DNA from: Escherichia coli
GTDB taxonomy: Bacteria > Pseudomonadota > Gammaproteobacteria > Enterobacterales > Enterobacteriaceae
DNA length: 64,000 bases
Assembly (NCBI RefSeq): GCF_024223415.1
Contig: NZ_CP100500.1
Strand: one strand, 5' to 3'
Part shown: positions 11,145 through 37,580 of the stretch, in pieces
How positions within the stretch are numbered: the first letter of the stretch is position 1
Layout: each line of letters opens with the position of its first letter
Notes under the pieces: model-generated
What the model was told of the DNA's origin: nothing
What the model saw: the letters and a program-made list of their open reading frames with translations, nothing else
The model's database searches: none
Program-made: the position numbers and the translations under genes

Positions 11145-11633
11145 TCACATCAGATCATTTACGCCGCTTACTGTGGTATTCCAGACCGAACTTAACTTCC
11201 CTTTCATTCCCGAAAGCATATCAGACACCGGTGACGAGGCCATACTCTCCCGCAAATCCTCATCACAGCGTTCCAGACTGACAGTGAACTCAATTTTTTT
11301 GGCCTTACCGTGGCGGTCAAGTTCGCTTCGCGTTGTGCGGACAGCCGTTATCACATACATGCCGTATATCTGCCCCACACCGTCAATCAGCGGCCATGGG
11401 CGACCAGTGTAAGCCTGCGTCGTTAAAAGGCTGAGGGAAACCTCACCGCCGGTAATTTCGGGATAAAGCACACCGGACAACGTGATCTGGTCGTCACCCG
11501 CCCCGATATACTGCCAGCTGGCCGAACGATTGATGCGTTCATTTTTAACGTGGCGCCAGGTTTTATTATGTTGCAGTTGTTGATGAGGCAGCGTACGCAA
11601 CTCAAAAACAAACATGCCGTAAATCATCATCAT
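11145..11633 (-). CDS. U: tail protein, P2 gpU family
   Basis: FVFELRTLPHQQL...WRHVKNERI...ITLSGVLYPEITGG...GRPWPLIDGVGQIYGMYVI is colinear with remembered P2 gpU. Confidence 0.85.
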   Translation of the reverse strand: MMMIYGMFVFELRTLPHQQLQHNKTWRHVKNERINRSASWQYIGAGDDQITLSGVLYPEITGGEVSLSLLTTQAYTGRPWPLIDGVGQIYGMYVITAVRTTRSELDRHGKAKKIEFTVSLERCDEDLRESMASSPVSDMLSGMKGKLSSVWNTTVSGVNDLM

Positions 11634-16038: not shown

Positions 16039-17321
16039 TAAGCACCTCCAAGCGTCGCAAATGCAGGACCAAAGAATTCATCAGTAAACGTCTGGTAAAG
16101 TTCCATATCCTCAAGCGGCGGAACGGGCGTGTACTTGTAGCGGATACGCACGCGTCCCTGACGAAGTTCCGTGGTGCTGTTATCCACCACGTCATACCAG
16201 CACTCCGCACCAATGAGACGTCCTGACGTAACCAGCGCATCCAGTTTTGCGCGAATTGCGCTTAACACGTCTTTCACATTAGCAGGGGTCAGCGGGGCAT
16301 CAATCGTTTCAAACTGCGCTTCCGCAATGGAATCAGCCAGCACCTGAGCGGTTCGCGTGTACACCTCAAAGATATACGCCTTCGTTTCCGGCGTACGGTT
16401 GCCCCAGAAGCGGAAACCGTTACGGCAAATGATGGTAGTGATTTCCTTGTTGTTGAGATTGTTGGCATCGCTGTCTTCGGACTGAAGGGACCAGAACACC
16501 GGGCTGGAAATACCCAGCACATTTGTTACCGGCACGTTGGACAGCGATTTATGCCAGCCCTGTTCGTGGTCAATACGTGCACGTAAACCGCAGGCGTACG
16601 CCGCAGCCGGGAAGACCTCATTAGCGCCGGATTTCGGGTTATAGGCGATGAAGTCAGGCCAGAGCAGCATAAGTTCGCGCTCGTTAAATCTGGCGCGGTA
16701 GCTGATTGCATCAGCGGGCTTCTTGCAGTTGTGACAGCCCGCGTAGACAAATGCGCGAAGTTTTTCTGCAATTACACACAGGGATTTTGTGACAGCTTCA
16801 GTATCCAGTCCGGGAGCTGCGATGATGCGCGGACGGTAACCGATGGCATCATCCTGTTCAGCTATCAGAAGTGCATACATACCGGTATAATTACCGTCGC
16901 CATCCGTGCCACCAATGACATACTGGTCCTGCGTTTTGTGTGGGTATACAGGATGTGCATCTTCAGACTCATCAATACCAAAAAATGCCCTGTCTTCAGG
17001 ATCCAGATGACCGAATGATGTAACTCCTGTATCCGGGGCGCCCTGAGAACTGGTATCAGGAACGCGCACCACAATCACCTTCGTGCTCACCTGGTCGGCG
17101 ACAGCCTTAAGCGATTTGTAAAGCGTCCCCTTTGTGCCGGCCTTACCCAGCACATCACTGACGCGGGTCAGCAGTGTGGGTTTGTTCAGCGGGAACAGAG
17201 TTTCATCCGCGTCATCTGCCGTAGCCACAATACCAATAACACTGGAATCCACATCATTAATGGCGGTGGCAAGGCCGGTACTTTCCCTTACGCGCGCACC
17301 ATGAAAGCGTGTTTCACTCAT
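16038..17321 (-). CDS. FI: contractile tail sheath protein, P2 gpFI family
   Basis: MSETRFHGARV...IGIVATADDADETLFPLNKPTLLTRV...AGTKGTLYKSLKAVADQ is colinear with the remembered P2 FI N-terminus. The 49-codon upstream extension in the ORF track is rejected. Confidence 0.9.
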   Translation of the reverse strand: MSETRFHGARVRESTGLATAINDVDSSVIGIVATADDADETLFPLNKPTLLTRVSDVLGKAGTKGTLYKSLKAVADQVSTKVIVVRVPDTSSQGAPDTGVTSFGHLDPEDRAFFGIDESEDAHPVYPHKTQDQYVIGGTDGDGNYTGMYALLIAEQDDAIGYRPRIIAAPGLDTEAVTKSLCVIAEKLRAFVYAGCHNCKKPADAISYRARFNERELMLLWPDFIAYNPKSGANEVFPAAAYACGLRARIDHEQGWHKSLSNVPVTNVLGISSPVFWSLQSEDSDANNLNNKEITTIICRNGFRFWGNRTPETKAYIFEVYTRTAQVLADSIAEAQFETIDAPLTPANVKDVLSAIRAKLDALVTSGRLIGAECWYDVVDNSTTELRQGRVRIRYKYTPVPPLEDMELYQTFTDEFFGPAFATLGGA

Positions 17322-17394
17322 ATGTTTCACCCTTGTCTGGCTGGTTGATTTTGCGTAATCATTACCCACACACGCGGTAATCTCACCCCTTTGA

Positions 17395-17418
17395 TGTTGT
17401 CTCCTGACAGCGACAACA
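17395..17418. promoter_or_regulatory. Ogr/Delta-type late-promoter activator site (TGT-N12-ACA dyad)
   Basis: TGTTGTC-tcctgacagc-GACAACA. The inner TGT (17398-17400) and ACA (17413-17415) are exactly 12 bp apart. It lies in the divergent FI/D intergenic region, about 55 bp upstream of a plausible FI transcription start. Confidence 0.55.
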
Positions 17419-17482
17419 AAACAGCCATTCAACGCCGCTGCGGTGCATGAAACCATTACAGAACGCACCAGGAGAGAACACC

Positions 17483-18574
17483 ATGAAAGAGCTGTCAGTT
17501 ACCGTTCCGTCACCGGATATCGACATCACCATCAACAACAACACACTGGCAAACCTCACAGAGCGACTCATGACGCTGACCCTGACGGATAACCGGGCCT
17601 TTGAGGCAGACCGCGTCACCCTCACCCTTGACGATACGGACGGGCAGTTACAGTTGCCACCACGTGGCGCACGCCTGAGAGTGATGATTGGCTGGCGAGG
17701 AGAATCACTGGTTAACAAGGGCACCTACGTCGTTGATGAGGTTGCGTGGGAAGGACCTCCAGATAAACTGATCATCACCGCCAGCAGCGCAGATTTTCGG
17801 GAAGAGTTCAACGTGAGGCGGGAGGTATCCTGGCACGACGTGACCGTAAAACAGGTTGTGTCAGCCATCGCTCACCGCTACGGCCTGAAGACACAGATAA
17901 GCGAAATCCTCATGGATATCGAAATTGACCACGCTGACCAGACCGAAGAGAGCGATATATCCTTCCTGACCCGCATGGCTGAAATGCTGGGTGCGATTGC
18001 CACCGTAAAAAACGGCAGCCTGTTATTCATTCTGCCGGGTGGCGGAACCGGGCCGGACGGAAGAGCCCTGCCTTCGTTCGCCATTACCCGCAGCAGCGGC
18101 GACAGTCACCGCTTTCGCATTGCTGACCGTGATGCGTATACGGGGGTCCGGGCGCACTGGCTCGATCTGAAGTTCGGGCAAAAGAAAAAAGTGAACGTGA
18201 AGCGACGCAGGGAAGCCGGGAAACAGAAACAGGAGAAGAGCAGCAGCCGGGAGGGTGATTACATGGAAGGCGCGGAAGGGAACGTCTACGTTCTGCGCAG
18301 GACTTACCAGAATGAAGAAACCGCACGACGTGCAGCTGCGGCAAAGTGGCAGGAGTTACAGCGGGGAGCAGCGGCATTCTCCATCACTCTGGCACGGGGT
18401 CGTGCCGACCTGTACCCCGAAATGCACGGCAGGGTAACAGGTTTTAAAAGCGAGGTGGACAATCAGGACTGGATTATTGCCAGGGTGGAGCACATCATAG
18501 ATGAAAGCGGCTTCACCACACAACTGGAGCTGGAAGCGAAAATCCCCGAATGGATAGCAGATTCAGGCGGATAA
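17483..18574 (+). CDS. D: late control/tail protein, P2 gpD family
   Basis: GGAGAG SD. LMTLTLTDNRAFEADRVTLTLDDTDGQLQLPPRGA is the hallmark gpD motif. Confidence 0.85.
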   Translation: MKELSVTVPSPDIDITINNNTLANLTERLMTLTLTDNRAFEADRVTLTLDDTDGQLQLPPRGARLRVMIGWRGESLVNKGTYVVDEVAWEGPPDKLIITASSADFREEFNVRREVSWHDVTVKQVVSAIAHRYGLKTQISEILMDIEIDHADQTEESDISFLTRMAEMLGAIATVKNGSLLFILPGGGTGPDGRALPSFAITRSSGDSHRFRIADRDAYTGVRAHWLDLKFGQKKKVNVKRRREAGKQKQEKSSSREGDYMEGAEGNVYVLRRTYQNEETARRAAAAKWQELQRGAAAFSITLARGRADLYPEMHGRVTGFKSEVDNQDWIIARVEHIIDESGFTTQLELEAKIPEWIADSGG

Positions 18575-18617
18575 AATTAAAATGAGCCATCTCCACTCAG
18601 CCAGATAAGGAGAAGCC

Positions 18618-18869
18618 ATGTTCCGTTGTCCCCTATGCGGTGCATCCGCACGTATCCGCACCAGTCGCAATGAAAATGATTCAGGCACAGTTCGCCTGAA
18701 GTACTACCAGTGCAATAACCTCGAATGCGGGATCGGCTTTACCACACTGGAGGGTTTTAACAAATTCACATCAAAACGCGCCCCGTCGCCGCAGGGTACA
18801 GAGCGGATACCGTGGGAAGATTTTCCGGGATCTCACAGGGGGAATACTCAGATTAATCTTGATATTTAA
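18618..18869 (+). CDS. ogr: late gene transcription activator, Ogr/Delta zinc-finger family
   Basis: MFRCPLCGASARIRTSR...YYQCNNLECGIGFTTLE matches P2 Ogr (MFHCPLCQHAAHARTSR...YHQCQNVNCSATFITYE) with the CxxC...CxxxxC arrangement. Confidence 0.9.
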   Translation: MFRCPLCGASARIRTSRNENDSGTVRLKYYQCNNLECGIGFTTLEGFNKFTSKRAPSPQGTERIPWEDFPGSHRGNTQINLDI

Positions 18870-18918
18870 GAACAATAATCAGGTTGAGAGGACATCATAA
18901 GGCAAGTAGATTAACGGC

Positions 18919-19013
18919 AGATACTTTCCCGCAACCACGGGCAAGTATTTAATTATCCATGATGAAATATGACCTAAATTGTTTTTTGCCCGCCGGAAAG
19001 CGGGCATTTTTTT
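18919..19013 (+). ncRNA. predicted sRNA, A-type copy A0 (directly after ogr)
   Basis: Promoter TTGAGA (18884-18889), 17-bp spacer, TAGATT (18907-18912). Internal hairpin CCCG-caacca-CGGG. Terminator GCCCGC-cggaaa-GCGGGC (18988-19005) followed by a T-run. The 5' end is estimated. Confidence 0.45.
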
Positions 19014-19227
19014 ATTCTTTTGTGGTTATGGGGTCATCAGGAACCACGTGCAGATTATATTTTTGTTTTTTTGGCGTTCCTCCGGCAGCAACGAGTTCAT
19101 CAATAAGACACTGACACGCCTGAACATCCCGGGCATGTCTTAGTTTCACCTTTATTGATTTAACCTTATCCTCACCGGAGGAGAAATGCAGTTCAATCTC
19201 AATATCGTTTCTTCGGAACAATCTCAT
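19012..19227 (-). CDS. hypothetical small protein R1 (71 aa), the only intact copy of a triplicated ORF
   Basis: MRLFRRNDIEIELHFSSGEDKVK.... The start with an SD is conserved in the two decayed copies (AGGAGG in copy 2). The stop abuts the bidirectional terminator. No family recognised. Confidence 0.4.
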   Translation of the reverse strand: MRLFRRNDIEIELHFSSGEDKVKSIKVKLRHARDVQACQCLIDELVAAGGTPKKQKYNLHVVPDDPITTKE

Positions 19228-19321
19228 ACGCCCCCTGAATATATCAGAAATACTAGTATCGAAAAATGAGAAAACAGTTAGACAGGAGAAACATATTAAC
19301 ACAAATCATTTATACCTATAG

Positions 19322-19339
19322 ATGAAATTATAATTTCAT
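19322..19339. promoter_or_regulatory. perfect 18-bp palindrome ATGAAATTATAATTTCAT between divergent R1 and B1
   Basis: Read directly from the sequence. Degenerate versions sit at the same place in unit 2 (~20497) and unit 3 (~21143). Confidence 0.4.
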
Positions 19340-19371
19340 TCATGAATATGATAGATAACTATATTGTGAAC

Positions 19372-19478
19372 AAAATGAAAAATGGCTAAATTAAAAATGG
19401 GCATGGAGGAATGCCCGGTTATCAATATAATGTGACGTAGATCATTGTTTTGCCCGCCGGAGAGCGGGCATTTTTTTT
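19372..19478 (+). ncRNA. predicted sRNA, B-type copy B1
   Basis: -10 TATATT at 19360-19365. Hairpin GGGCAT-ggagga-ATGCCC. Terminator hairpin 19452-19469 followed by T8. Ends are estimated. Confidence 0.35.
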
Positions 19479-19582
19479 GCGCCTGCCATCGAGGCGCCTT
19501 CCCTGGCGCACACAAAGCAGCCCTGATTTTCCATGAAAACTTCAGGGTTGAGCTGCGGGCACAAAGTGAGTAGATTAGCTAC

Positions 19583-19679
19583 GGGTACCTCCCCCTGACA
19601 ACAGGAAGGGTGTCCATTATCCATGATATACAAACGAAAAGTCTTGTTTTTTGCCCGCCGAAGCGCGGGCATTTTTTTA
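19583..19679 (+). ncRNA. predicted sRNA, A-type copy A1 (immediately upstream of hok locus 1)
   Basis: TTGAGC (19548-19553), 17-bp spacer, TAGATT (19571-19576). 5' hairpin around CCUGACAACAGG. Terminator 19653-19670 followed by T7. Confidence 0.45.
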
Positions 19680-19723
19680 TGCATCAGACAAGATACAGCC
19701 CACCCCAACTGACACCTGAAATA

Positions 19724-19752
19724 TTGCCGCAACAAAAAGAAACAGTTAAATT
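19724..19752 (+). promoter_or_regulatory. candidate hok/mok mRNA promoter
   Basis: TTGCCG (19724-19729), 16/17-bp spacer, TTAAAT/TAAATT (19746-19752). The predicted start coincides with GGGUGCCUU (19759-19767), which is complementary to a 3' element (20102-20110). Confidence 0.5.
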
Positions 19753-19794
19753 ACGCGCGGGTGCCTTTCGGCTGATGGCCGGAGGGAAAACCTG

Positions 19795-19864
19795 AAGGCC
19801 GGATGTGGAAAGGCCCCGGAAAACATTTCTGTTTAACCGAGGCCCTAACCGCATTACCTTGACA
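19795..19864 (-). ncRNA. sok: candidate Sok-like antisense RNA (ends approximate)
   Basis: Minus-strand promoter TTGCTC (19899-19894), 17-bp spacer, TAACCT (19876-19871), overlapping the hok SD. The transcript would cover the mok start at 19805, as in R1 hok/sok. No terminator could be resolved. Confidence 0.35.
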
Positions 19865-20038
19865 AGTGAAAGGTTAGCGCCTCTCCGGAAAAGGAGCAAG
19901 TGCTATGTCGCAAAAATCGCTTACGGCCATCACGTTCTGCGTGACGGCAATCCTCATCATCTGGATATTGCACGGTTCGCTGTGCGAAATACGGATGAGC
20001 TTCTGGGGAGCGGAGTTTGCGGCGTTCTTACAATGTAA
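19805..20038 (+). CDS. mok: mok-like overlapping reading frame
   Basis: 77-codon ORF with a GAAGG SD. It starts 100 nt upstream of hok and overlaps almost all of it in another frame, which is the hok/mok architecture. Confidence 0.5.
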   Translation: MERPRKTFLFNRGPNRITLTSERLAPLRKRSKCYVAKIAYGHHVLRDGNPHHLDIARFAVRNTDELLGSGVCGVLTM

Positions 20039-20045
20039 GAAGTAA
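19905..20045 (+). CDS. hok: Hok/Gef-family type I toxin (46 aa)
   Basis: AAGGAG SD. MSQKSLTAITFCVTAILIIWILHGSLCEIRMSFWGAEFAAFLQCKK has one TM plus the SLCE...AAF motif of Hok proteins; closest by memory to HokA. Confidence 0.8.
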   Translation: MSQKSLTAITFCVTAILIIWILHGSLCEIRMSFWGAEFAAFLQCKK

Positions 20046-20134
20046 GGAAACCGCGACGGGGGAGCAATCCCCCGTCAATCGGTTGCCAGGGTAAGGTCGA
20101 TAAGGCACCCTATCTCACAGACATGAACAAACAA

Positions 20135-20167
20135 ACCCGCAGCATAAAAACTGCGGGTTTTCTTTTT
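20135..20167 (+). terminator. intrinsic terminator of hok locus 1
   Basis: ACCCGCAG-cataaaaa-CTGCGGGT followed by TTTTCTTTTT. Confidence 0.7.
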
Positions 20168-20298
20168 GGTGTCCTCACCGACTTGAAACAGTGATCAGAC
20201 TATAAGACAAAGCCCGCAATGTTGCGGGCTTACTCTACCTCTCGAAAATGTGGTCACTGCGTGGACATACGCTGATACAAATCCTTTATATCAATAAA

Positions 20299-20397
20299 TT
20301 AAATCTTTGTTTTTTTCATCAACAATGATTTAACCTTATCCTCACCGGAGGAGAAATGCAGTTCAATCTCAATATCGTTTCTGTGGAACAGCCTCAT
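20299..20397 (-). pseudogene. truncated copy R2 of the small ORF (32 codons)
   Basis: MRLFHRNDIEIELHFSSGEDKVKS is identical in pattern to R1; it then diverges and stops. An AGGAGG SD is retained. Confidence 0.4.
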
Positions 20398-20544
20398 AAG
20401 ACAACCTCCTGAATTCATCAGAAACACAGTCAACTGAAAACCAGAAAGCAGACAAACAGTGGACACACATTAATACAAATCATTTATACCTATAGATGAA
20501 ATTGCAGTTTCATCTATAACATGACAGGTAACAATATTGTGAAA

Positions 20545-20651
20545 AAACTCAAAACTCGTTAGATTAAAGACGGACAGAGCAATGCTACTTTATCAATAAC
20601 ATGTAACCTGTACTTCCTTATTTTGCCCGCCGAAGCACGGGCATTTTTTTT
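20545..20651 (+). ncRNA. predicted sRNA, B-type copy B2 (divergent body)
   Basis: -10 AATATT near 20533. Terminator 20625-20642 followed by T8. The body differs from B1/B3. Confidence 0.3.
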
Positions 20652-20755
20652 GCGCCTGCCATCGAGGCGCCTTCCCTGGCGCACACAAAGCAGCCCTGAT
20701 TTTCCATGAAAACTTCAGGGTTGAGCCAAAAGCACAAAGACAGTAGATTAACCAC

Positions 20756-20849
20756 GGGTGCCTTCCACCTGACAACAGGAAGGGTGTCCAGTATCAATGA
20801 CAGACAACTCACATTGCTGTTTTGCCCGCCGGAAAGCGGGCATTTTTTT
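20756..20849 (+). ncRNA. predicted sRNA, A-type copy A2
   Basis: TTGAGC (20721-20726), 17-bp spacer, TAGATT (20744-20749). Hairpin CCTTCC-acctgacaaca-GGAAGG. Terminator 20824-20841 followed by T7. Confidence 0.45.
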
Positions 20850-20981
20850 ATTCTTTTGTGGTTATTGGGTCATCAGGAACAACATGCAGATTATGCTTTG
20901 ATTTTTTTGGTGTTATTACAGCAGCAACGAGTTTATTAATAAGACACTGACATGCCTGAACATCCCTGACATATCATAATA

Positions 20982-21053
20982 TCACTTTATTTTTTTAGCT
21001 TGTCCTTTCTGGAGCAGAAATATCTCAACATCGTTTCTGTGGAACAACCTCAT
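20982..21053 (-). pseudogene. decayed copy R3 of the small ORF (stop after 23 codons, internal deletions)
   Basis: MRLFHRNDVEIFLLQKGQAKKIK*. Flanking DNA is still alignable by eye to the R1 gene. Confidence 0.35.
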
Positions 21054-21192
21054 TTGCCCTTGAATGTATCATAAATATCAGCATCGGAAAACCAACAGCA
21101 ATACAGAAGAAACATGTTAATGCAAATCACTTATACCTATAGATGAAATTACAGTTTTGTTCATAAATATGATAAGTAACTATATTGTGAAT

Positions 21193-21300
21193 AAAATGAA
21201 AACTAGCTAAATTAAACGTGGGCATGGTGGAATGCCTCGTAATCAATAATACATGATCCGTACTTCCTTGTTTTGCCCGCCGGAAAGCGGGCATTTTTTT
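21193..21300 (+). ncRNA. predicted sRNA, B-type copy B3
   Basis: -10 TATATT at 21181-21186. Hairpin GGGCAT-ggtgga-ATGCC. Terminator 21275-21292 followed by T7. Confidence 0.35.
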
Positions 21301-21404
21301 GGCGGTTACCATCGCCTCACCTTCCTGGTTCACATGAAGCAACCCTGATTTTCCATGAAAACTTCAGGGTTGAGACAAAAGCACAAAGACAGTAGATTAA
21401 CCAC

Positions 21405-21497
21405 GGGTACCTTCCACCTGACAACAGGAAGGCTGTCCAGTATCAATGACAGACAACTCACATTGCTGTTTTGCCCGCCGGAAAGCGGGCTTTTTTT
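21405..21497 (+). ncRNA. predicted sRNA, A-type copy A3
   Basis: TTGAGA (21370-21375), 17-bp spacer, TAGATT (21393-21398). Terminator 21473-21490 followed by T7. Confidence 0.45.
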
Positions 21498-21601
21498 GGC
21501 AGTTATCATAGCCGCACCTTCCTGGCACATATGAAGCAACCCTGATTTTCCATGAAAACTTCAGGGTTGAGACAAAAGCACAAAAACAGTAGATTAACCA
21601 C

Positions 21602-21699
21602 GGGTGCCTGCCACCTGACAACAGGAAGGGTGTCCATTATCCATGATATACAAACGAAAAGTCTTGTCTTTTGCCCGCCAAAGCGCGGGCATTTTTTTA
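21602..21699 (+). ncRNA. predicted sRNA, A-type copy A4 (immediately upstream of hok locus 2)
   Basis: TTGAGA (21567-21572), 17-bp spacer, TAGATT (21590-21595). The 3' half is identical in pattern to A1. Terminator 21673-21690 followed by T7. Confidence 0.45.
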
Positions 21700-21909
21700 T
21701 GCATCAGACAAGATACAGCCCACCCCAACTGACACCTGAAATATTGCCGCAACAAAAAGAAACGGGTGCCTTTCGGCTGATGGCCGGAGGGAAAACCTGA
21801 AGGCCGGATGTGGAAAGGCCCCGGAAAACATCTGTGTTTAACCGAGGCCTGACCCTTCCTACCGTGACAAGTGGAAGGTTAGCGCCTCTTTGTAAAAGGA
21901 GCAAGCGCT

Positions 21910-22050
21910 ATACCGCAAAAAACGATTATTGTTGGCATTTTATGCCTGACAATAACCCTGGTCATCTGGATGGTCCACGATTCGTTATGTGAATTCAGCT
22001 TTGATATCTGGGGAGCGCGTTTTGCGGCGTTCTTGCAGTGTAAACCGTAA
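21910..22050 (+). pseudogene. hok: hok-family toxin gene with ATG>ATA start and deleted promoter
   Basis: (I)PQKTIIVGILCLTITLVIWMVHDSLCEFSFDIWGARFAAFLQCKP. The first codon is ATA where locus 1 has ATG. A 16-bp deletion removes the -10 element present in locus 1. Confidence 0.65.
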
Positions 22051-22200
22051 GAAACCGCAGCGGGGGAGAAATTCCCCGCTATCCGGTTGTTGGGGTGGGC
22101 CGATATGGCGCCCTTTCCCTGTAGAGACAAAACAAAAAACCAGATTTGCCCGCCATTGAGAGGGCTTTTTTGTCACCCTCACCAGTGAGGGCATCATCAT

Positions 22201-22422
22201 TCAGAGGCGCGTAAGCCACCCGGCGTTAACATCCTGCCTGTCAACCCTGGCCGCAGAGTCTGAACGGCAGGTACCGGAAGGAGTACCAAAAACATCCCTG
22301 ACAAGTTCCGCCACCTTCCCGATATCATCAGGTGTCACATTCCTCACCTCGGCAGTGATCCGTGGCGTACCATCATCGTTAACAAGAGTGGCTTTAAAGC
22401 TGGTGCGAAGGGAAAACAACAT
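22201..22422 (-). CDS. hypothetical small protein (~73 aa)
   Basis: GGGAGGGG SD upstream of clustered ATGs. No family recognised. Not part of the serS region as I remember K-12. Confidence 0.3.
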   Translation of the reverse strand: MLFSLRTSFKATLVNDDGTPRITAEVRNVTPDDIGKVAELVRDVFGTPSGTCRSDSAARVDRQDVNAGWLTRL

Positions 22423-22626
22423 CAACATCCCCTCCCTTTGGTTCGTTGCACTGACGGCACGACACCATCAGGAAAAAGAAAAGCCCACAACGTCAGTATT
22501 GTGGACTTTTTTCTTCAAAGATGGACATTATCTGGACACATGAAAATAAAATCCATTTATTTTCATATAGTTAAGTACCATGCAAAAGCGCCCGCAGGCG
22601 CTTTTTAGATTCAGAAAAATTAGGTA

Positions 22627-37492: not shown

Positions 37493-37580
37493 GGTGAGGT
37501 GTCCGAGTGGCTGAAGGAGCACGCCTGGAAAGTGTGTATACGGCAACGTATCGGGGGTTCGAATCCCCCCCTCACCGCCA
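37493..37580 (+). tRNA. serW: tRNA-Ser (anticodon GGA), 88 nt with a long variable arm and encoded CCA
   Basis: GGTGAGGTGTCCGAGTGGCTGAAGGAGCACGCCTGGAAAGTGTG...GGTTCGAATCCCCCCCTCACCGCCA. Its position after infA identifies it as serW rather than serX. Confidence 0.97.

Follow-up and report, generated by a model that had tools for sequence, protein, structure and literature searches.

A tandem array of predicted small RNA genes between ogr and attR of a rare P2-like Escherichia coli prophage

The stretch of DNA analyzed here (the window; 64,000 nucleotides [nt] of Escherichia coli contig NZ_CP100500.1, assembly GCF_024223415.1) matches the chicken isolate E. coli DG341-1 at 99.9% identity and contains, at 18.88-21.70 kb, an array of short repeated units. 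The array belongs to the accessory cargo carried by a rare P2-like (P88/Xuanwuvirus-like) prophage of E. coli, and it lies between the late-gene activator gene ogr and the right attachment site, attR. An earlier inspection of the letters alone (the sequence-only reading) had described five plus-strand units, each possessing a promoter and a terminator. We recovered all five (A0 to A4), together with three further units of a related type (B1 to B3), which brings the total to eight. That the array constitutes a family of small RNAs (sRNAs) is a well-supported prediction. The units and the two features that enclose them are as follows.

18618..18869, plus strand: ogr, late-gene activator and last conserved gene of the P2-like prophage (Pfam Ogr_Delta, E 4.9e-14; Ogr/Delta-like in the RefSeq annotation)
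18884..19013, plus strand: unit A0, promoter TTGAGA-17-TAGATT, predicted RNA at ~18919-19013 (95 nt; fold z -3.4; 84 bits with model R1)
19364..19478, plus strand: unit B1, promoter TTGTGA-17-TAAATT, 5' hairpin GGGCAUGGAGGAAUGCCC, and terminator; predicted RNA of ~80 nt (41.6 bits with the A-unit model)
19548..19678, plus strand: unit A1, predicted seed allele AUUAUCCAUGAUAUACAAACGAAAAGUCUUGU; promoter, terminator, and fold (108 bits with the covariance model)
20537..20651, plus strand: unit B2, promoter and terminator retained, no 5' hairpin left, a single mismatch in the stem of the terminator (z -1.05; 30.9 bits with the A-unit model)
20721..20849, plus strand: unit A2, predicted seed allele AGUAUCAAUGACAGACAACUCACAUUGCUG, with 11 nt identical to the RyhB seed; promoter, terminator, and fold (103 bits with the covariance model)
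21185..21300, plus strand: unit B3; promoter, terminator, and fold (41.2 bits with the A-unit model)
21370..21497, plus strand: unit A3, predicted seed allele as in A2; promoter, terminator, and fold (94 bits with the covariance model)
21567..21698, plus strand: unit A4, predicted seed allele as in A1; promoter, terminator, and fold (110 bits with the covariance model)
22500..22598, strand not applicable: attR, TGGAC-type integrase arm repeats followed by the 15-bp core aaaagcgcccgcagg at 22584-22598

The pattern TTGAG-N18-TAGATT occurs exactly at 18884, 19548, 20721, 21370, and 21567, always on the plus strand and with no sixth exact copy in the window; the five promoters reported previously, including their 17-nt spacing, are thus exact pattern matches. 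When one mismatch was allowed, a single extra match was gained at 20537 (a B unit), and the resulting total of six compares with a mean of 0.67 in shuffled windows, none of 100 shuffles having reached six. The stems of the A-unit terminators were found again by a terminator scan at the positions given before (i.e., 18988, 19653, 20824, 21473, and 21673), each reading GCCCGCC-loop-GCGGGC followed by 7-8 T and located ~95 nt past the predicted start. The array region as a whole holds 17 terminator-like sites versus 5.0 +/- 2.3 in shuffles. The A0 terminator is bidirectional, being common to A0 and to a converging open reading frame (ORF), orfX. The 5' hairpins of the A units (-11.5 to -14.2 kcal/mol) each begin 7 nt past the -10 element, and the predicted A RNA is folded as a 5'-terminal stem-loop followed by an open middle and the terminator, with the common stem starting at the first transcribed G. 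As for the CCUUCC stem that the sequence-only reading had assigned to A2-A4, the hairpins are present, and the sequence itself needed amendment, since A4 reads CCUGCC and the register is imperfect. Alignment of the 3' parts agreed with the three alleles recognized earlier (A1 = A4, A2 = A3, and A0 unique).

A near-palindrome, CCCTGATTTTCCATGAAAACTTCAGGG, abuts the -35 element of A1-A4 (19512-19547, 20685-20720, 21334-21369, and 21531-21566); it is invariant at these four places and absent at A0. Its role could be that of an UP element or of a binding site for a regulator. In locus L006, the copA-site locus described below, there is a variant in which one side has gained a T and the other an A.

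The B units are built in the same manner, i.e., with a TTGTGA-17-TA(A/G)ATT promoter, a hairpin 7 nt past the -10 element, a variable middle, and a terminator as in the A units. A covariance model made from the A units alone recovers all three B units (31-42 bits), and the A and B families therefore have a common design.

Across three promoter lineages (A0, A1, and A2-A6), TTGAG, TAGATT, and the 17-nt spacing are invariant, whereas the spacers are identical at only 8-10 of 17 positions. In the 5' hairpin, A0 and A2 differ at 11 of 24 stem positions, and all 12 of 12 pairs are nonetheless standard (three pairs changed doubly, five singly); upon random substitution of 11 stem positions, all pairs were kept in 5e-5 of trials. 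Other alleles contribute G-U/A-U and U-G/U-A exchanges to the hairpin. The earlier suggestion that the stem changes in sequence while its pairing is retained is borne out by the paired changes between A0 and A2. The terminator stems are constant apart from one pair that changed from G-C to G-U, whereas their loops vary (GGAAA, GGAGA, GAAGC, AAAGC, GUUGC, and AGAA).

The units are non-coding, having no conserved reading frame: A0 and A1/A2 are read through the terminator in different frames, and in B1 and B2 a stop codon comes immediately after an ATG. This agrees with the sequence-only reading, which had judged coding unlikely; the ORFs with KKMPALRRAK-type translations on which it commented are on the minus strand and run through the terminators, and frames differ between alleles. 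The ATG in question occupies the same place in the middle part of all A and B alleles, and ORFs of 29-51 amino acids (aa) begin there, which might be taken to mean that the units encode small proteins. We consider this scarcely credible, given that the ATG has no Shine-Dalgarno sequence at a usable distance, that the frame is not kept from A0 to A1/A2 and is closed immediately by TGA or TAA in B1 and B2, and that the ORFs cross the terminator, because of which a terminated transcript would be without a stop codon.

The prophage carrying the array is inserted in the dmsA-serS interval, with its integrase gene adjoining dmsA in the carrier genome. The left half of the serS terminator doubles as the 15-bp att core, and a second copy of this core is found at the left attachment site (attL) beside dmsA (11570-11584 of locus L003), so delimiting an integrated element of ~37.4 kb with the entire array between attL and attR. 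In strain 5A, the dmsA-serS spacer is empty; it contains the att core once and zero units. Likewise, in most E. coli the blastn match to the query is limited to the last 37 nt, which are the serS terminator. Because the core is present both at attL and at 22584-22598, and because the units are absent from the empty site, we place the array inside the integrated element, between ogr and attR. The sequence-only reading had it directly after ogr, as the Pfam Ogr_Delta match at 18618-18869 attests; A0 starts 15 nt past the ogr stop codon, as it also does in related prophages at other sites. Two such sites were found, one beside zapB/glpF (SCU-115) and the other directly upstream of the copA promoter (CS5L and CM2), where the cargo consists of ogr, A0, orfX, B, A, and A, in this order. 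The copA-site array is the simplest version, in which the second of these A units is followed by a small minus-strand ORF, the arm repeats, and att. The array is thus mobile with the phage, and is neither host DNA nor a host sRNA gene.

As a separate observation, the gpD-ogr segment of the prophage (16500-18880 of the window) had no megablast match among 50,697 phage records, and this P2-like lineage is seemingly unrepresented among sequenced phage isolates.

Units were detected in 30 of 5,426 complete E. coli genomes, on the chromosome in every case, and the carriers are mostly poultry and human isolates. Distant blastn searches returned nothing from the 50,697 phage records (B2+A2 and A0-to-A1 queries) or from 72,556 plasmids (A0-to-A1 query). 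In P88, the nearest named relative as judged by its hok gene, ogr is followed directly by hok, with zero units; the A-unit covariance model found no unit in the right ends of 77 other P88-like prophages (Ogr ~70% identical), and the region upstream of hokW in Shiga toxin (Stx) phages contains no A-like unit. A promoter-plus-terminator pattern, looser than the exact promoter pattern, was run against 185,579 GTDB species representatives and gave only three matches (Dehalococcoidaceae, Desulfobacteraceae, and Ruegeria), which we take as chance. The same type of pattern located units at three viral and five metagenome loci (a sixth metagenome match was without units), and these comprised the known alleles plus two minor variants. 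In agreement with the previous failure to match any known sRNA, Rfam 15 gave no gathering-level match in 18.5-22.7 kb; at E <= 10, the matches to the units were all sub-threshold and mostly driven by the terminators (RyhB, 24 bits versus a gathering score of 55; AgvB, 23 versus 56; Esr41, 17 versus 102). In our literature search, no paper was retrieved that connects the region between ogr and att in P2-like phages with sRNAs. The unit family is real yet very narrow.

These data bear on the lead interpretation of the sequence-only reading, according to which A0 is a phage-borne replacement for the 3' end of a host sRNA gene serving as attB, the other copies being scars of serial integrations. 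P2 integrates into the 3' end of cyaR, its attB being inside an sRNA gene, and a P2-like phage might accordingly use the 3' end of an RNA gene here, too; the repeated terminators and a possible relic of an attachment-site arm within the array are also in keeping with such a history. The resemblance to P2 and cyaR extends to an att core that overlaps an intrinsic terminator, and it ends there: the terminator in this case belongs to a protein gene, serS, and the units are outside attB. Moreover, neither the 5A spacer nor other empty sites contain a unit or unit fragment, the array follows ogr at two other integration sites with different flanking host genes, and the unit pattern was met among the GTDB species representatives only as the three matches in unrelated taxa. 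We therefore regard the idea as very unlikely and, in its host-site form, as ruled out, because the units are inside the att boundaries and the cargo follows ogr at other sites.

The remaining parts of the array, up to attR, are as follows.

19012..19227, minus strand: orfX, a 71-aa orphan ORF (WP_001236182.1), convergent with A0 and divergent from B1; the only intact copy
19725..20170, plus strand: hok1 locus, with promoter, leader, Hok coding sequence (19905-20045), and terminator (20133-20160) (Pfam HOK_GEF; Rfam sok 46.2 bits, below gathering)
20240..20300, strand not applicable: possible relic of a P2-type attP P arm, with two TGGNCA arm-type repeats plus AAATCC, the spacing being that of the real attR
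20299..20394, minus strand: truncated orfX copy with the N-terminal 24 codons conserved (repeat comparison and ORF list)
20860..21059, minus strand: degenerate third orfX copy with a broken frame (repeat comparison and direct reading)
21712..22100, plus strand: hok2, probably a pseudogene; a 15-bp deletion takes out the -10 element and ATG has become ATA, the rest of the frame being intact (not annotated by PGAP)
22145..22170, plus strand: remnant of a unit terminator, GCCCGCCATTGAGAGGGC plus a T run (19.9 bits, E 0.44), matching in position the last A-unit terminator of the copA array
22201..22428, minus strand: 75-aa ORF, last gene before attR, with a conserved counterpart in the copA-site locus L006

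The array stretch is made up of three copies of a ~650-bp module, in which a minus-strand orfX is followed by a B and an A unit. orfX has no Pfam match, and among 5.8 billion sequences it has only five protein clusters, the three with a source name being all E. coli. The hok1 locus is intact and 90-95% identical to the hok of P88-like phages. The sequence-only reading had placed a hok locus after both A1 and A4; two loci are indeed there (HOK_GEF and sub-threshold sok matches), the second being probably a pseudogene. Alignment of 20240-20300 with the attR of this prophage, the copA-site attR (L006), and the P88 att side suggests, with moderate confidence, that this segment, which lies past hok1 and abuts the truncated orfX, is the right-end relic of a related phage. 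If so, the array would have grown from four to eight units by fusion or recombination of phage ends, and a weaker form of the scar idea may survive in this shape, with copies gained by fusion of phage right ends. The enlargement would have proceeded by duplication or fusion of the ~650-bp module.

The A units align colinearly with hok1, hok2, and the P88 hok: the TTG of the -35 element is in the same place, the -10 element TAGATTA is identical to that of the P88 hok, and six bases past it comes CGGGTGCCTT, the first bases of hok mRNA, leading into a shortened version of the first hok stem (CGGGTGCCTT...CTGA...GGA.GG). Downstream of this stem, the A units turn into a B-like 3' half that is unrelated to hok and reaches its terminator ~60 nt further on. 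The A family thus has the appearance of an sRNA body placed behind the promoter and protective 5' stem of a hok gene, and the likeness to hok is best read as common ancestry of the promoter and first-stem part only. Consistently, neither A nor B units contain a Hok/Gef toxin ORF (PF01848), the HOK_GEF match being confined to 19905-20045, and the sok/hok leader model of Rfam (RF01794) matches only the hok loci (19759-19918 and 21764-21921, both below gathering) and none of the units. We suggest that the A units were born from a duplicated hok promoter and first hok mRNA stem, which would have been fused to a B-like 3' half.

Given that nine plus-strand terminators are packed into 3.3 kb, that the one of A0 also closes the converging orfX, and that only 15 nt separate A0 from the stop codon of ogr, the array could be conceived as a stack of strong, partly bidirectional terminators that insulates hok, orfX, and the converging host gene serS from read-through of ogr and the late operon, and the reverse. 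A single terminator would suffice for this purpose, however, and P88-like relatives manage without any of the units; the conserved promoters, 5' hairpins, and variable middles would also be left unexplained. We consider insulation an improbable role.

The layout of the units points to base-pairing regulators. In enterobacterial base-pairing sRNAs, a U-rich tract together with a terminator that has a long U tail forms the Hfq-binding module, and this arrangement, with the U tract before the terminator, is well established. All eight units have U4-6 just before a GC stem of 6-7 bp, followed by U7-8, and a variable single-stranded segment just upstream. Because the U tract, GC-rich terminator, U tail, and upstream variable segment match the layout of Hfq module and seed, we favor, as the probable reading, eight predicted genes for lineage-specific, prophage-encoded, trans-acting sRNAs, probably Hfq dependent and with different seeds. 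A prophage-associated regulatory sRNA family had been offered as an alternative in the sequence-only reading; it is this alternative, and not the lead interpretation, that the evidence favors. More specifically, each of the eight genes would be transcribed from its own predicted sigma-70-type promoter, which is recognized at the consensus level and is invariant among the five A and among the three B units, giving five A RNAs of ~95 nt and three B RNAs of ~80 nt, which a lysogen would make constitutively. With seeds that differ among alleles (three for A, two to three for B), they would pair with RNAs of the host or of competing phages, and this pairing would adjust the translation or stability of the RNAs concerned. 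We infer transcription, Hfq dependence, and trans targets from sequence features.

Two seed matches deserve mention. In a target search covering the 37-kb prophage, the best match was between the B1 middle (19430-19448) and a site inside the gene for gpA, the replication endonuclease (L003 ~19150-19170), with 19 contiguous base pairs, five of them G-U; this pairing is marginal, our rough chance estimate being ~0.08. In addition, the A2/A3 seed contains CUCACAUUGCU (20798-20808 and 21447-21457), which is identical to 11 nt of the K-12 RyhB seed and has the same position relative to the terminator as in RyhB; in A6, 10 of these 11 positions are retained. Outside this match, the RNA has no relationship to RyhB, and the 24 bits obtained with the Rfam RyhB model fall short of the gathering score of 55. 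Allowing for the sRNAs and seeds compared, we estimate the post-hoc chance of such an 11-mer match at roughly 0.2-0.3, and we therefore treat it as a lead only. A bolder proposal is that the hok promoter and 5' stem act as an sRNA-launching cassette whose seeds diversified in tandem, and that the A2/A3/A6 allele with CUCACAUUGCU mimics or sponges a core host sRNA. We view it as a long shot; if true, the RyhB-like allele would rewire iron or stress regulation in the lysogen.

A type I toxin-antitoxin arrangement, with B as antitoxin of the divergent orfX or A as regulator of hok, was considered and rejected, as no significant complementarity was found and orfX is not hydrophobic. A shared UAUCAAU motif, which we take to be able to pair with 7-8 nt in the seed of OmrA/B, and a CA-rich loop in A2, presumably similar to GcvB-binding sites, are too short to count.

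Several results weigh against an interpretation of the units as functional sRNA genes. (i) In an unbiased MAFFT alignment, which puts the A0 3' strand one column off, covariation is weak, with two doubly changed pairs, a number reached in 35 of 500 shuffles. (ii) Diversity is shallow, with some five alleles for A and three to four for B, and E. coli is the source of every one. (iii) Much of the identity between units is due to recent block duplication, and identity alone does not prove selection. (iv) The promoter match of A0 is partly a matter of ascertainment, because A0 was found through the promoter motif. (v) No convincing target emerged: pairing of the seeds with the orfX, hok1, ogr, and ORF75 mRNAs was no better than in shuffles, and the same was true of the pairing predicted for the RyhB-like seed with the sodB start region (92 of 300). 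(vi) At least one copy may be decaying, because B2 is without the 5' hairpin.

Taken further, such points lead to the view that the units are non-functional debris, namely, repeated fragments of hok loci (promoter plus first stem) and of common terminators, multiplied by recombination of prophage right ends, with any transcripts being noise. The homology of the A units to the hok promoter and 5' end would fit this view, as would their decayed neighbors in the array (hok2, two orfX copies, and the terminator remnant), the possible relic att arm at 20240-20300, the lost B2 hairpin, the restriction of the family to 30 of 5,426 genomes, and the weak covariation. Debris would not, however, be expected to keep its promoter hexamers and their spacing invariant over three lineages whose spacers are ~50% identical, nor a hairpin that survives the 11 substitutions separating A0 from A2. 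Moreover, promoter, hairpin, and terminator are all intact in every A unit and in B1 and B3, whereas the protein genes that were duplicated as part of these modules are broken; and in the simplest array, that at copA, four intact units are already present and debris is absent. On balance, we deem the debris account unlikely, although it is the strongest competitor of the sRNA reading.

Side-by-side paralogous sRNA genes with their own promoters and terminators, conserved ends, and diverging parts are familiar from LhrC1-5 (Listeria), PrrF1/2, and OmrA/B. Unlike these, which belong to the core genome, have regulators and targets that are known, and conserve their seeds, the units described here are phage cargo, and their predicted seeds are their most variable part. 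To our knowledge, the ogr-att cargo site is not among the known hotspots of P2. The closest class consists of Hfq-type sRNAs and anti-sRNAs that pathogenic E. coli strains carry on their prophages. PasA-D, AgvB, AsxR, Esr41, and DicF resemble the units in being short, prophage-borne accessory RNAs with their own poly-U terminators, existing as variants and in multiple copies, and being restricted to lineages. A survey of PasA-D describes prophage sRNA variants with multiple copies per genome, PasA often being near sok, and it names OmrA/B and PrrF as tandem duplicates (bioRxiv 10.64898/2026.05.13.724894). The carriers of Pas, AgvB, AsxR, and Esr41 are lambdoid or Stx phages, whereas the present units are on a P2-like phage; and the Pas copies are dispersed, at least 22 kb apart (bioRxiv 10.64898/2026.05.13.724894), whereas the units are in tandem within 2.8 kb. 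Similarity to Pas was addressed indirectly: the Pas reference strain E2348/69, which is in our genome collection, is absent from the 30 genomes that match the units by distant blastn. With hok/sok (of the hokW type, from P88-like and Stx phages), the A units have the promoter and first stem in common, and two A units are directly upstream of hok loci, but the Hok ORF, the mok/sok region, and the fold-back 3' end are all missing from the A units. What is unusual within the class is the dense tandem array in a P2-like phage, combined with hok ancestry.

That prophage sRNAs add a layer of host control is accepted, but this layer has been sampled thinly, and the known cases are mostly from lambdoid and Stx phages. 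The candidate family on this P2-like phage stands out by its density (eight candidate genes in 2.8 kb) and by the readability of its apparent origin, in which a toxin-gene promoter and 5' stem seem to have been reused, seeds swapped, and ends kept; it would be a compact natural example of sRNA birth and diversification on mobile elements. The carriers being mostly poultry and human isolates, any effect on host physiology could therefore bear on fitness in those niches.

Some further features were noted in the surroundings. A second P2-like prophage end, comprising B, Cox, repressor-like, and integrase genes, is situated beside pflA, ~9 kb from attL (L003 1-2633, corresponding to NZ_CM144243.1 1632000-1634632). 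Elsewhere in the window, Rfam identified an IS102 RNA (88 bits) at 49751-49947 on the minus strand, and a tRNA gene is located at 37493-37577 on the plus strand.

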